From Alphaproteobacteria bacterium (GTDB lineage Bacteria > Pseudomonadota > Alphaproteobacteria > GCA-2731375), in NCBI GenBank assembly GCA_029936195.1, contig JAPYUH010000001.1:10741-74740 (forward strand): 64,000 bases of DNA, written 5' to 3'. A program made the translations under genes and the position numbers. The stretch's first letter is position 1. Every line of letters starts with the position of its first letter. This document shows, one piece after another, positions 55,212-64,000 of the stretch. The notes beneath the pieces were generated by a model, which searched no databases, was not told where the DNA came from, and saw only the letters and a list, made by a program, of their open reading frames with translations.

Positions 55212-55424
55212 ATGAAAATCGATATCGAATATTGCATGCAATGAAACTACGAACCCAATGCCCTCCGTGCGAGGGACCGGATCATGGCAAGGCATGGCGC
55301 AGAGGTAAGTTTAACCGCATCTGGCGGCGGTAAGTTCGAAATCACCGTCGATGGCGTCCTGGCCTACTCCAAGAAAGCCGTTGGGCGCTTCCCAACCGAT
55401 GCAGAACTGGATGCGCTGGTCTAG
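55212..55424 (+). CDS. SelW/Rdx-family selenoprotein with in-frame UGA (Sec) in a CxxU motif
   Basis: AGGAG SD 6 nt upstream of the ATG. Translation is MKIDIEYCMQ-[TGA]-NYEPNALRARDRIMARHGAEVSLTASGGGKFEITVDGVLAYSKKAVGRFPTDAELDALV. The IEYCxxU and GG.FE(I/V)TVDG...SKK..GRFP blocks match the Rdx/SelW family. The TGA at 55242-55244 sits exactly at the redox-motif Sec position. Confidence 0.6.
55261..55275 (+). promoter_or_regulatory. Candidate SECIS-like hairpin downstream of the in-frame UGA
   Basis: CCCTC-CGTGC-GAGGG stem-loop beginning 17 nt after the TGA. The full structure is not verified. Confidence 0.3.
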
Positions 55425-59997: not shown

Positions 59998-61158
59998 ATG
60001 AATAAAGAGGACCAATTTTCCGGTGTCGGGCTGCCGGCCGAGACTAGTTTGGATACGGTTCTGACGGGGCGGCGGTTCGAGGCGTTGGAGAATTTTTTTC
60101 GCACCTTCGCTATCCGCCCAGGCGACCGCATGGTCTTTCTGGCCGACCGCAAACTGGACCCTCGGGTCATTCACGCTATTTGCGGGTTGGCCCGCGCGCG
60201 CGGCGTGGACCCTTGGGTGGTCATGAACGAGAGCTCCCAGCATACCGAAGTTCCGCCCGAAGTCCGGCCCATGCTGGAGCAGGCGACCTTTGTCGTTTCC
60301 ACCTGGTTTTGCTCCATCATTGATCCGTTCTGTATTGCGCAGCGCGCCAAGGGTCAGCGCTGGGTGAAAATTACCTACTTCCGCGATCTTGACCTGCTCG
60401 ACACCCCCCAGGCGCGCTTCCCCATCGATTTGGTGGGCGAGATTATCCGCCAGACGGCGGCGCAATATCCGTCTTCGGGAGATTTCGATCTGCATTTCAC
60501 CTGCCCCCGGGGCACCGACCTGACGATCAAGTTTACCGGCGCCATGGGCGCCAATTTGTTGGGCTCCAACCGCTGGCGCGGACAAATGACGGCCGATGAA
60601 CCCGGCGCTTATGTGCATTATCTGCCCACCCACGGCCCAAATCTTTACGACCGCACTTCGGTCAATAACAATGATGACATGGCGGTCTCCTTGAACGGCG
60701 TCGTGGTGCCCAACTGGGCGGTTGGCTTTGAGCGGCCATTCGAGGAAGCGATTCGCGTGCAGTTTCAGGATGACAGCGTCACCGGCGTCGAAGGCAACAG
60801 CGAGACCGCCGCGATCCTGCGCGAGATGCTGATGGGCGGTCAGATCATCGAACTGGGCTGCGGCTTCAACCCCAAGGCGCCCCGGCACACCATTTACCCG
60901 GCCGGCTCTAATTCGCCGGGCGCCTTGCACTACGGAATAGATCTTGCCCAACCATCCGACTACATCCGCCGCACCATGCCCGATTGGGAGGAACCGCCCG
61001 TACACATGGATCTGATCGCCTTCGACGCCACGGTAACCGCGGGCGACGGGACGTTGATCGACGGCGGCCTGCTGACCGCCCTGCGGTCGCCGTCCGTGGT
61101 CGAAAAGGCGCGGCAATATGGCGATCCGGTCGATCTGTTGGAGAACTGGCCGGAATAG
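59998..61158 (+). CDS. Conserved hypothetical protein, possibly aminopeptidase T (M29)/NicX-like fold
   Basis: 386 aa. ATG with a GAGGAG SD. Only weak architectural resemblance to M29/NicX proteins, so the function is not assigned. Confidence 0.4.
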   Translation: MNKEDQFSGVGLPAETSLDTVLTGRRFEALENFFRTFAIRPGDRMVFLADRKLDPRVIHAICGLARARGVDPWVVMNESSQHTEVPPEVRPMLEQATFVVSTWFCSIIDPFCIAQRAKGQRWVKITYFRDLDLLDTPQARFPIDLVGEIIRQTAAQYPSSGDFDLHFTCPRGTDLTIKFTGAMGANLLGSNRWRGQMTADEPGAYVHYLPTHGPNLYDRTSVNNNDDMAVSLNGVVVPNWAVGFERPFEEAIRVQFQDDSVTGVEGNSETAAILREMLMGGQIIELGCGFNPKAPRHTIYPAGSNSPGALHYGIDLAQPSDYIRRTMPDWEEPPVHMDLIAFDATVTAGDGTLIDGGLLTALRSPSVVEKARQYGDPVDLLENWPE

Positions 61159-61208
61159 TCGGGAAGTGTTCTAATGCCCGGCAAATCATGCATCCAGGAG
61201 GAACCACC

Positions 61209-62045
61209 ATGCACATCGGCGCCATGATCTTCGCCACGGACTATTCCATTCGCACGGACGAATTGGCAATCGCCATGGAGGAGCGGGGCTTTGAATCCCT
61301 GTTTCTGCCCGAACATACCCATATCCCCACGTCGCGGAAGTCGGCCTGGGCGGGTGGTCCCGATCTGCCCAAGGATTATTGGCATACCCATGATCCGTTC
61401 GTGGGCCTGGCTTACGCCGCCGCCGTGACCAAGAAATTGAAGCTCGGCACGGGCATCTGTTTGCTGGCCCAGCGGGAACCCATTGTCACCGCCAAATCCG
61501 TGGCCAGCCTGGACATGATGTCCGGCGGCCGCTTCATCTTCGGCATCGGCGGCGGCTGGAATGTGGAAGAGATGGAAGATCACGGCGTCCAATACAAAAC
61601 CCGTTTCGCCCGGATGCGGGAAAATGTCCTGGCCATGAAGGCCCTATGGACCCAGGAGGAAGCCGCCTTCCATGGCGACTTCGTCAATTTCGATGATTGC
61701 TGGGCCTACCCCAAACCGGCCCAGGACCCTCATCCCCCGATTATCCTGGGCGGCGAGACCGATTATACCCTGCGCCGCATCGTCGAATACGGCGACGGCT
61801 GGCTGCCCCGCGCCCGGCACGGTTTTGATGCGGCGGAGAACATGGCGCGCCTGGCCCGCATGGCCGAGGCGGGTGGGCGCGATGCCTCCGAGTTTTCCGT
61901 CAGCGTCTTTGGCGCGCCCGATGACAAGGCCATGCTGGACGGCTGGGCCGAGGCGGGCGTCACCCGGGCCCTGTTGACCCTGCCGTCCGAACCCCGCGAC
62001 GATGCCCTGCGCCGCCTGGACCGTTACGCGGCGGTCTTGAGCTAG
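61209..62045 (+). CDS. LLM-class flavin-dependent oxidoreductase (short ~280-aa subgroup)
   Basis: Luciferase-like monooxygenase TIM-barrel signature. GGAGGAA SD. Confidence 0.8.
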   Translation: MHIGAMIFATDYSIRTDELAIAMEERGFESLFLPEHTHIPTSRKSAWAGGPDLPKDYWHTHDPFVGLAYAAAVTKKLKLGTGICLLAQREPIVTAKSVASLDMMSGGRFIFGIGGGWNVEEMEDHGVQYKTRFARMRENVLAMKALWTQEEAAFHGDFVNFDDCWAYPKPAQDPHPPIILGGETDYTLRRIVEYGDGWLPRARHGFDAAENMARLARMAEAGGRDASEFSVSVFGAPDDKAMLDGWAEAGVTRALLTLPSEPRDDALRRLDRYAAVLS

Positions 62046-62058
62046 GCAGGGTTGCGGC

Positions 62059-62472
62059 ATGGCGCCTTCAGCCCCGATGGAGCTGTTGGATTGCGTCGCC
62101 TTCCTGCTGGTGGACGGTGAACGCTTTCTGGTGGAGCGGCGGCGGGAGGACAAGGTGGTGGACCCGGGCGCCGTCGCCATTCCCGGCGGTCACCTGGAGC
62201 CGGGGGAAAGTCCACTGGAGGCCTTGCATCGTGAATTGCACGAGGAATTAGGCGTCACTACGGCCAATCCGCAATTCATTTGTACCTTGCTGAACCCATC
62301 CGAGGAATTCCGGAAGCTCGAATATTACGCCATTCACGAATGGACGGGTGAAATTGAGAACAACGAAGCGGAAGCGCTGCTGTGGCTGTCCCTGGATAAT
62401 TTCGACGGTCTGGACCTGGCAGTGGACCGGGTGGCCCTGGCGGAATACATCCGGGTTATTGGGAACCGGTAG
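62059..62472 (+). CDS. NUDIX hydrolase
   Basis: Nudix box GGHLEPGESPLEALHRELHEELGV. Confidence 0.8.
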   Translation: MAPSAPMELLDCVAFLLVDGERFLVERRREDKVVDPGAVAIPGGHLEPGESPLEALHRELHEELGVTTANPQFICTLLNPSEEFRKLEYYAIHEWTGEIENNEAEALLWLSLDNFDGLDLAVDRVALAEYIRVIGNR

Positions 62473-62639
62473 CCGCCTCCCCCTGTTTGCCAACTTTGCA
62501 ACTGTAGAGCCATCAACGGCCTTTGCGATGCCCGCGCATTGAATCCAGAAAACCTGGATCATTCGCGTTGGAGAAGTTTTGGGTATTGCCGGTAGTATCC
62601 ACGCACGCGCGTCAAACACCGCGTTACTGGGTTCTCTAA

Positions 62640-62796
62640 ACACGAAATTCCATATTTAATGAATAGAATTATTTATTAATATTATACGATAGTAATATAA
62701 AAATTTATACTATCAATTTTAAGCTAGTGATTTATTATGTCCATTCGGCATACTCTATTTGGTTTAGTATACTGGCATCATTAGGAGTATTTTCCT
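62640..62796. promoter_or_regulatory. Strongly AT-rich (~25% GC) island upstream of the GAF-PAS sensor gene
   Basis: About 150 bp of AT-rich sequence in a ~64% GC background. AGGAG SD lies 7 nt before the TTG at 62797. Confidence 0.5.
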
Positions 62797-64000
62797 TGTC
62801 GTCGGATTGTTCACAGCGTGCGCCTGGCGCAAGTCAGACCCCCGTCGGGAAAATGTTTAACTCGACCGACGCTACGGGGACCGGTGCAAGCCTGCTGTCG
62901 CGGCAACTGGAACTGGTGGGCAAACTGGCGGCCAGCACGGTCCTCATAGATGAGGGTTTGCAACCGGCCCTGCGGGAAATCGCGGAAATTGCCGGGGAAG
63001 TGCTGGACGTGGACCGCGTGGCGATTTGGAGAATTGGGCGGGACGAGACGGAGATCACTTGCGGCGATGCCTTCCAACGAAGCGACGGCAGTCATGTTCA
63101 TGGCCAAACGACAAAAATTTCGGAGCATCGGGAACATATCGAATTTTTGCGGCAGCAGCATGTGGTCGCGGTGGCCGATCTGAACGAAGTGAACGCGTTA
63201 CCGCGGTCAGGTTCTGATTTATTGAAATCACTGGGTGATACCGCACTGCTTGAGGCGACTGTTTGGCGCGAAGGCCGATTTATCGGGACGATGGCCTTCG
63301 CGATGCTTGGTACGCCACGTATCTGGAGTGAGGAAGAACAGGCCTTGGCTGGCGTGTTTGTTGAATTCTTTTCCCGTATTTTTGCAACCCACGAGCGGCG
63401 GGAGCTGGAAGCCGTGCTCCGGGATTACGCCGAATCCGCATCGGATTGGTTTTGGGAGATGGATGCTGATGGCCGTTTTACCTATATCTCGGACCGGATT
63501 TTCGGAGCGACCGGTGATCGTCCGACATCGATTTATGGGAATACTTTTGAGCAGATGGGCCATGAAGTATCTTCCGAGGACCAGCGCAGTCTCAACAGCG
63601 CCCTTGCCAACCGGCAACCATTTCAAAATCTCGTTAGTTGGCGGCAACTGCGAGACGGCAGGGTCACATGGACACGATCAGGTGGCGTGCCGATATTTGA
63701 TGATGAAGGACAATTCGCCGGATATCGAGGCTCGAGTGCTGATATCACCGACACCAAGATGCTTGAACTGGAGAAAACTGAACAAGCAGAATTATTAGAG
63801 GCAATTTTGGAAAATATGCCAACAATTGTCTCGTTTTGTGACCGCGAGTTGCAGTTAGTATTTGTGAACAATGCACACGCAAAATATCATGGACTTGAAA
63901 AATCTGAAATAGTTGGCAAGACTTTGTTAGAAGTTTTGGGGCCGTCGACGGGGGCAAAATCTGAAGATTTTATCCATGAAGTCATCCGGACCGGCGAGCC
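62797..64000 (+). CDS. GAF-PAS signal-transduction protein; the ORF runs off the window end
   Basis: Hand translation gives an open frame to position 64000, with a GAF-like segment followed by PAS-like segments (WFWEMDADGRFTYISDRI...). Start is TTG 62797 with SD, or ATG 62854. The last ~400 nt have strikingly low GC3. Confidence 0.7.

Follow-up and report, generated by a model that had tools for sequence, protein, structure and literature searches.

Does a change in base composition along a gene betray a domain that was taken up from another organism, or can such a pattern have a different history? This question is raised by the right-hand end of a 64,000-nucleotide (nt) stretch of contig JAPYUH010000001.1 (the whole stretch that was analysed, hereafter called the window), which belongs to a deep-sea marine alphaproteobacterium in a Rhodospirillaceae-like group of metagenome-assembled genomes (MAGs). 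There, a very AT-rich segment is followed by an open reading frame (ORF) that encodes sensory domains and runs off the end of the window. The original prediction, made from the sequence, saw in this ORF a GAF-PAS sensor gene with a recently acquired or recombined PAS-coding segment. Our analysis points to an event on a larger scale. We consider it probable that the AT-rich segment and the ORF are parts of a 2.6-kb lineage-specific insertion carrying the broken, neutrally evolving remnant of a hybrid histidine kinase, and that the locus thus records first a gain and then a decay.

An insertion between the NUDIX and FAD-monooxygenase genes

We used the complete NUDIX hydrolase encoded to the left of the AT-rich segment (62059-62472) as a query, and found many metagenome and MAG contigs that encode an identical protein. 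Of the eight contigs that we retrieved, seven (L001-L004 and L006-L008) are 99.1-99.7% identical to the window and align to it gap-free, while the eighth (L005) aligns at 99.6% identity with one gap. The gene arrangement of the window is reproduced without indels in five independent assemblies, and the sequence past position 64000 was read from L001-L004 (99.1-99.7% identical to the window). In addition, 80 related loci were fetched via a luciferase-like neighbour of the NUDIX gene, with one genome per species. The nearest relative (L014) is a sister species, represented by a deep-sea MAG (OC3_3000m). At the amino acid (aa) level it is 96% identical in the luciferase-like protein, 92% in FAD397, the resident flavin adenine dinucleotide (FAD) monooxygenase, and 82% in the NUDIX protein; the corresponding nucleotide identities are ~88-89% in alignable flanks and 78.7% over the NUDIX gene. 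Loci L018-L032 are 77-87% identical to the luciferase-like query protein.

In the sister species and in eight other relatives (L018, L019, L020, L021, L022, L023, L027 and L032), the orthologues of the NUDIX and FAD397 genes are convergent and lie 0-15 nt apart. In the species under study, the same two genes are separated by 2622 bp (8343-10964 in L002, corresponding to window positions 62473 to ~65094). The kinase, when reconstructed as described below, has no tblastn match in any of 26 relative loci, and at none of the nine relative NUDIX-FAD junctions is there a 157-nt stretch below 46% GC. Since the two genes abut in the relatives, parsimony favours an insertion of the 2.6-kb block after the split from the sister species. 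The idea of a recent acquisition therefore survives at a coarser scale than the one originally envisaged: what the sister species and eight other relatives lack is the block as a whole.

The block also has an atypical composition and codon usage, with a GC content of 0.51 as compared with 0.61 in the window, although the kinase genes of relatives likewise lie below the GC of their hosts (see below). Absence from the orthologous site in close relatives and atypical composition are two of three properties by which a horizontally acquired islet may be recognized. The third, a mobility function or a donor, was not found: the block borders have no integrase, transposase, tRNA or clean direct repeat, and the sole repeat is a highly diverged scrap of the FAD-monooxygenase gene. 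As neither a donor nor a mobility mark came to light, the argument that the block is of foreign origin, which appears plausible, draws on its absence in relatives and on its composition.

The FAD scrap (NTQNFSNANDPGFLDSMRGHRKGR*WLYSCKVGKQGEAAT, with one in-frame stop) is 40% identical to FAD397 over 40 aa, and its gapless nucleotide identity to the 3′ ends of FAD genes of its own species and of relatives is 59-67%. It occupies the exact position that the 3′ end of the resident FAD gene has in the relatives. The scrap could be either an old duplication of the target site or a sequence that arrived with the insert. A recent duplication in place is disfavoured by its raw divergence of 33-40%, as against ~23% (raw) for the pooled fourfold sites compared with the sister species. 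However, local neutral values vary between 0.09 and 0.58, which blunts this argument.

Both the exact position of the scrap and its divergence beyond the pooled value for the sister species would also suit the reverse history, in which an ancestral block was lost by deletion in every relative sampled, for instance through recombination between two copies of the FAD 3′ end; direct repeats of this kind could mediate a precise deletion. We nevertheless hold this history to be decidedly unlikely, as several deeper branches and the sister species would all have had to undergo the same precise loss, and no trace of the kinase or of the AT-rich island was seen in any relative examined.

Within the species, one contig departs from the window close to the island. 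L005 follows the window up to 62626-62627 and then enters the end of an insertion sequence (IS; L005 10568-10669). The same IS end lies beside a TA dinucleotide in an unrelated context in contig L094 (939-1493), where the transposase belongs to the Pfam family DDE_3 (6e-27), and the junction reads ...GTTA/TACC... in both L005 and L094 (the slash marks the breakpoint). With a DDE_3 transposase and insertion at TA, the L005 variant allele has the properties of the IS630 family. We thus rejected the breakpoint at 62627 as a presence/absence edge of the 2.6-kb insert; it is a later, strain-level event that segregates just left of the island. As a separate observation, the three contigs from FUCH22-1 samples (L005, L006 and L007) all break at most ~160 nt past the NUDIX stop, at or just before the AT-rich island, with L006 and L007 ending at window position 62528. 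Heterogeneity among strains or poor coverage of the AT-rich tract could account for these breaks.

Lesions and relaxed selection in the kinase gene

The gene downstream of the island does encode a GAF-PAS sensor in its first part, as originally predicted. Pfam identifies GAF (1.4e-8), PAS_4 (9e-16) and PAS (2e-12) domains, all above the curated cut-offs, which confirms the N-terminal sensory domains. The frame starts with TTG at 62796, with an alternative ATG at 62853, the position at which the closest relatives begin in the alignment. Among 5.8 billion proteins, the closest ones other than the protein itself are P0002 (1184 aa) and P0003 (1185 aa), at 39-41% identity. Both consist of a GAF domain, five PAS domains, HisKA, HATPase_c and a receiver domain (REC).

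The original prediction had also proposed looking past the window for an output domain. What follows there is a putative HisKA domain, an out-of-frame HATPase_c domain and a broken remnant of a receiver domain. In L002, the first ORF encodes 566 aa with the architecture GAF-PAS-PAS-HisKA, includes the H-box LAHDFNNIL, and is terminated by TGA. The N-box of the ATPase (IDPSLFEQAILNMAINALHAM) and the rest of HATPase_c sit in the +1 frame behind this TGA. Deleting one A from GGCAAAAATTTCC restores a continuous 708-aa GAF-PAS-PAS-HisKA-HATPase protein, which aligns through the junction with both P0002 and P0003, and in which HATPase_c is recognized at 1.7e-18. Because 'SVGK ISNQFLGEKEGLF-CTIDPSLFEQAILN' matches 'SLGETVSTSLISKPGLWPCTVDPAQLEQAILN', the lesion can be placed in a run of five A nucleotides (A5) between HisKA and the ATPase domain. 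The frameshift is common to all four contigs that cover the site, with no indels among them; in none of the four is HATPase_c in the same frame as the DHp domain.

The 3′ part of the gene is damaged further. Behind the ATPase stop lies a sequence that can be aligned to the receiver domain of P0002 ('DVVMVVAGDAVCR*LQVEMLDHLR*QVLDAADG...AAALKARPETKLMYMS', asterisks denoting stops). It is equivalent to 49 aa, has two in-frame stops, and has suffered a deletion of ~32 aa that covers the region of the acceptor aspartate, so the intact receiver domain of a hybrid kinase is not present. In the alignment with P0002, residues 21-374 of the reconstructed protein correspond to P0002 1-355 and residues ~330-708 to P0002 ~690-1063, while PAS-2 corresponds to the third PAS domain of P0002 (436-555). 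From these segments, it follows that three PAS domains are missing in addition to the receiver domain.

A stand-alone response regulator of 171 aa is encoded 2 kb downstream of the relic, past the window end (L002 12854-13369). Its receiver domain is 49% identical to that of P0002, which is above the identity of the kinase itself. The regulator is resident and not the detached receiver of the kinase, as an orthologue with 79% identity exists in the sister species, which has no kinase.

Polymorphism within the species was counted across the window and six contigs (L001, L003, L004 and L006-L008), with L002 as the reference. Synonymous changes stand to nonsynonymous or stop changes as 8 : 29 in the kinase and as 45 : 32 in the flanking genes (Fisher p = 2.7e-4, all contigs). 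As L001 and L003 both show broken conserved genes, the comparison was also made without these two contigs, which gives 3 : 17 for the kinase and 35 : 22 for the flanks (p = 5e-4). The ratio of nonsynonymous to synonymous polymorphism per site (pN/pS) in the kinase is ~1.1 and is thus indistinguishable from neutrality; purifying selection is not in evidence. Extra nonsense alleles occur at codons 94 and 500 in L001 and L003, and we give them little weight. The broken conserved genes in question are an FMO-like gene in L001 (1257-3062) and an FAA_hydrolase gene in L003 (7793-8652), each split in two. Such splits could be either consensus errors or further pseudogenes of the respective strains.

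These data also bear on a reading in which the split gene is functional, either as a GAF-PAS-PAS-DHp protein that works with a separate ATPase polypeptide or through frameshifting at A5, and in which the island is a regulated, possibly silenced promoter. Several assemblies annotate genes in both frames, which are open; the motifs of the H-box and the N-box are preserved; and the gene has a strong Shine-Dalgarno sequence and a promoter-like site ahead of it. However, pN/pS is ~1 in both parts of the split frame, and the HisKA region, although it carries the H-box, has a Pfam score of 23.2 against a cut-off of 26.9. Furthermore, the N-box frame has no start matched with a ribosome-binding site except an internal ATG called at L002 10398, the receiver domain is destroyed, and a run of five A nucleotides is too short for efficient slippage. 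A functional split kinase thus seems highly improbable to us. With its ATPase out of frame, its receiver destroyed and purifying selection lacking, the gene fails as a working hybrid kinase. Most likely, the relic no longer signals, and its product would at most be a 566-aa GAF-PAS-PAS-DHp fragment that lacks a catalytic domain.

Compositional heterogeneity of the gene and its upstream spacer

The window has a background of 60.9% GC (standard deviation 5.6% for 157-nt windows), somewhat below the ~64% that was first estimated. Relative to the host, the kinase gene is atypical as a whole: its GC content is 0.52, and its GC at third codon positions (GC3) is 0.55 as compared with 0.77 in host genes. 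The gene had been described as opening with typical high-GC codons and then switching, over its last ~400 nt, to codons ending in A or T. We find its codons to be atypical already at the beginning, and GC3 to fall gradually, from ~0.7 in codons 1-100 to 0.30-0.40 in codons 300-390. Since the GC3 expected from the amino acids and host codon usage stays at 0.73-0.78 throughout, the drop is not due to amino acid composition; the reference for codon usage was a set of 29 long window ORFs, pre-filtered at GC3 >0.68, which narrows their range. The Leu codon TTA, which makes up 1.5% in the reference genes, accounts for 6 of the 37 Leu codons in the part of the gene that lies in the window.

The drop in GC3 is therefore real, but the low-GC patch measures ~240-320 nt, and it is not terminal. 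In L002 the dip is local, with ~250 nt at 0.41-0.43 GC (window 63730-63980), after which GC rebounds to 0.52-0.57; a second, shallower dip lies near the frameshift site. GC at first, second and third codon positions all declines in the patch. In the reconstructed gene, the minimum of GC3 over 80 codons is 0.35 (codons 293-372) as compared with 0.57 overall, and a minimum as low as this occurs in just 0.24% of codon shuffles (permutation p = 0.002). When the whole gene is examined, then, composition recovers past the window end but does not become uniform. The heterogeneity is real but modest.

A natural explanation, and the one first put forward, is that the gene is native or older and that its last PAS-coding segment alone was imported or recombined from a low-GC organism, which would make the gene a mosaic at the level of domains. 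The GC3 minimum below the rest of the gene agrees with this. Furthermore, the patch is specific to this lineage, in that the corresponding PAS domain of P0002 and P0003 has a GC3 of 0.57-0.60. The patch also lies near the point where PAS-1 is joined to the relatives' third PAS, so that a recombination junction is located there.

However, the patch does not match one domain, as it extends from the last strands of PAS-1 across the linker and through the first half of PAS-2. It begins ~30-40 codons ahead of the PAS-2 boundary and stops in mid-domain, before the rebound in GC. By hand count, it is ~37% identical to the third PAS domain of P0002, which resembles the 39-41% identity of the flanking domains to the same protein. 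A HMMER search with the patch alone against 1.84 billion representatives gave mostly multi-PAS proteins at 23-36% identity, with none above 36% among the best 150 hits listed, and thus no closer match that might represent a source. (A word-seeded search with PAS-2 alone against 5.8 billion proteins was empty and missed even the protein itself, and is thus uninformative with regard to donors.) Lastly, it is the entire gene, beyond the PAS segment, that is absent from relatives. We consider the import of a separate PAS module to be improbable.

Part of the compositional anomaly is better seen as a trait of the gene family than as a sign of recent transfer, because the genes of the intact relatives are also ~6 GC points low: the kinase genes of P0002 and P0003 have 0.55-0.56 GC as compared with ~0.62 in their neighbours, and lie ~13 GC3 points below them.

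It might also be supposed that the low GC was made in place, by AT-biased mutation that eroded a pseudogene and its upstream spacer once selection had been lost. In favour of this, mutation in bacteria is generally biased from GC to AT, the gene is under relaxed selection, and GC declines at all three codon positions in the patch. Against it, clearly dead sequence is not AT-rich (0.57 GC in the receiver remnant and 0.53 in the FAD remnant), and singleton polymorphisms show no AT bias (~14 GC-to-AT versus 12 AT-to-GC, hand count). Moreover, the substitutions needed to take GC3 from ~0.6 to 0.35 are incompatible with the survival of an open frame of 566 codons. AT erosion is unlikely as the cause of the 0.40 GC patch, and we rate it as unlikely for the low GC of the locus in general.

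The AT-rich segment upstream of the gene is as extreme as had been stated. Positions 62640-62796, described as about 25% GC, have 24.2%, and the lowest 157-nt stretch of the whole window (62637-62793, 22.9%) is found here, ~6.8 standard deviations under the mean. The second-lowest stretch (63781-63937, 35%) falls within the sensor gene, and the remaining minima are at 39-47%. Scans of the island turned up neither an Rfam family nor a terminator, and the repeats in it are short and at chance level, while a self-similarity scan found no second copy, either in the window or among the loci fetched. The spacers upstream of the intact relatives' kinase genes are also AT-leaning (0.43-0.45 GC over 150 nt). 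The simplest reading is thus that the island is a leader or promoter region that arrived with the gene, in an extreme form. It contains a pair of promoter-like hexamers, which is putative, as a hexamer match is no evidence of function.

Nowhere in the locus is polymorphism higher than in the intergenic region that contains the island (62473-62795), with 40 segregating sites per kb and two haplotypes. The haplotypes divide the window and L004 from L001, L002, L003 and L008, and differ at seven sites in 62687-62751 as well as at 62824. At 62687-62850, diversity is ~10x that of the background, which points either to recombination with a divergent allele or to faster mutation at this place.

The coordinates of the features discussed are collected in the table.

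Table. Features at the insertion site and in the part of the kinase relic that lies within the window
Feature	Window position	Strand	Basis
NUDIX hydrolase gene, resident, left flank of the insertion	62059..62472	+	Pfam NUDIX, 7e-16
Decayed remnant of FAD-monooxygenase 3′ end	62468..62590	-	tblastn to FAD397 aa 354-393
TA dinucleotide with IS630-family insertion in one metagenome strain (L005)	62626..62627	.	L005 breakpoint
AT-rich island, single-copy leader/promoter-like spacer of the kinase relic	62637..62796	.	Composition, 23-24% GC
Promoter-like hexamers TCGGCA-17-TATACT (putative)	62745-62773	+	Consensus scan only, weak
Shine-Dalgarno AGGAG before TTG 62796	62783-62787	+	Direct reading of the sequence
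Kinase relic, first 401 codons, gene runs off the window	62796..64000	+	Pfam
GAF domain	62958-63371 (aa 55-192)	+	Pfam, 1.4e-8
PAS-1 domain	63432-63755 (aa 213-320)	+	Pfam
Low-GC patch: end of PAS-1, linker, start of PAS-2	63672..63940	+	GC ~0.40, GC3 0.35
PAS-2 domain, first half	63792-64000 (aa 333-401+)	+	Pfam

Two further observations concern the surroundings of the insertion. Fourfold-site divergence to the sister species is uneven between adjacent genes (window 59998-62472), with Jukes-Cantor (JC)-corrected values of 0.48 for a 386-aa protein of unknown function, 0.17 for the luciferase-like gene, 0.58 for NUDIX, 0.21 for FAD and 0.09 for a glyoxalase gene; this hints that the region is a mosaic of homologous recombination tracts. 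Elsewhere in the window, a 70-codon Rdx/SelW-like ORF (PF10262; 55212-55424, + strand) reads 'MKIDIEYCMQ[TGA]NYEPNALRARDRIM...', with an in-frame TGA (55242-55244) in a CxxU motif. Gene callers on related contigs take just the 46 aa after this TGA. Judged by these features, the ORF probably encodes a selenoprotein.

A proposed history and its comparison with known systems

We propose that a block of ~2.6 kb entered the lineage of this species only, between the convergent resident NUDIX and FAD-monooxygenase genes. It comprises, in this order, the decayed scrap of an FAD 3′ end, the 157-nt spacer of 23% GC, which may have served or may still serve as leader and promoter, and a shortened kinase copy. 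This copy lacks three PAS domains relative to its intact relatives of 1184 aa; a one-base insertion in the A-run shifts the ATPase domain out of frame, and the receiver domain is reduced to a stop-riddled stub. The data show the insertion, these lesions, the relaxation of selection and the uneven composition, whereas the foreign origin, the island's role as promoter and the loss of function are inferred from them. The odd composition could have three sources, namely a trait of the family, an origin outside the genome core and the local low-GC patch.

Several points weigh against this proposal. The low-GC patch of ~270 nt is left unexplained by it. We found no mobility mark, no clean target duplication and no donor, and the best non-self homologue of the kinase among the 5.8 billion proteins is just 41% identical. 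The frameshift and the receiver remnant were seen in near-identical contigs, the window's own genome ending at position 64000. For L001 and L003, the additional nonsense alleles may be assembly errors, given that conserved genes are broken there too. Finally, the frameshift is probably recent, because the 566-codon frame is still open, and the gene was presumably functional through much of its residence.

If the proposal is correct, the better annotation for the locus is that of a pseudogene within a species-specific insertion, rather than a GAF-PAS sensor kinase; beyond annotation this is of little import. As a clean, small case, it would show how a two-component sensor is gained and then decays in an uncultured deep-sea alphaproteobacterium, with visible steps of domain deletion, homopolymer frameshift, receiver loss and a segregating IS insertion. 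It also suggests that compositional 'mosaics' within multi-PAS kinase genes need not signal domain imports.

The closest known counterparts are the hybrid kinases P0002 and P0003 from marine Rhodospirillaceae MAGs, the latter of which is annotated as a 'MEKHLA domain-containing protein'. The order of domains is alike at both ends, with 38-41% identity over GAF and PAS-1 and 39% over PAS, HisKA and HATPase, and the H-box GGLAHDFNNILA and the N-box are held in common. The relatives also resemble the window copy in having a gene GC below that of the neighbours and an AT-leaning upstream spacer. The window copy differs in its length (708 versus ~1184 codons, with three PAS domains fewer), in the frameshift ahead of the ATPase, in the broken receiver stub and in its neutral evolution. 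The genomic context differs as well: the FAD-type gene downstream of P0002 was considered as conserved context and rejected, as it is just 24.6% identical to FAD397.

A second comparison is with AT-rich acquired islets that are targets of the xenogeneic silencers MucR and Ros. That AT-rich DNA is typically targeted by these silencers in alphaproteobacteria, as the original prediction remarked, is a fair general statement (PMC9410896, PMC8857273), and the underlying literature is sound for rhizobia and Brucella (PMC9410896, PMC8857273, PMC11662661). Like such islets (PMC9410896, PMC8857273), the block is lineage-specific, has a GC below that of its host and carries a very AT-rich upstream region, with 23% GC in the island as compared with 61% in the window; DNA of this kind is what MucR is reported to bind. 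Unlike them, it has no mobility genes and no identified donor, and its cargo is a dying rather than an adaptive gene. Moreover, the host is an uncultured marine lineage outside those in which MucR has been studied, and tblastn with a Ros query sequence found no Ros/MucR homologue within the 64-kb window. We see only a very faint chance that the locus is a newly acquired split kinase with a silencer-gated promoter of 23% GC, caught in the middle of domestication rather than in decay.

The locus bears a closer resemblance to pseudogenized two-component sensors. With these it shares a one-base indel within a run of A, in-frame stop codons in its distal domain, a pN/pS near 1 and an IS polymorphism nearby. 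What is unusual here is only the sharply bounded spacer of 23% GC, together with a low-GC patch in a gene of 52% GC.

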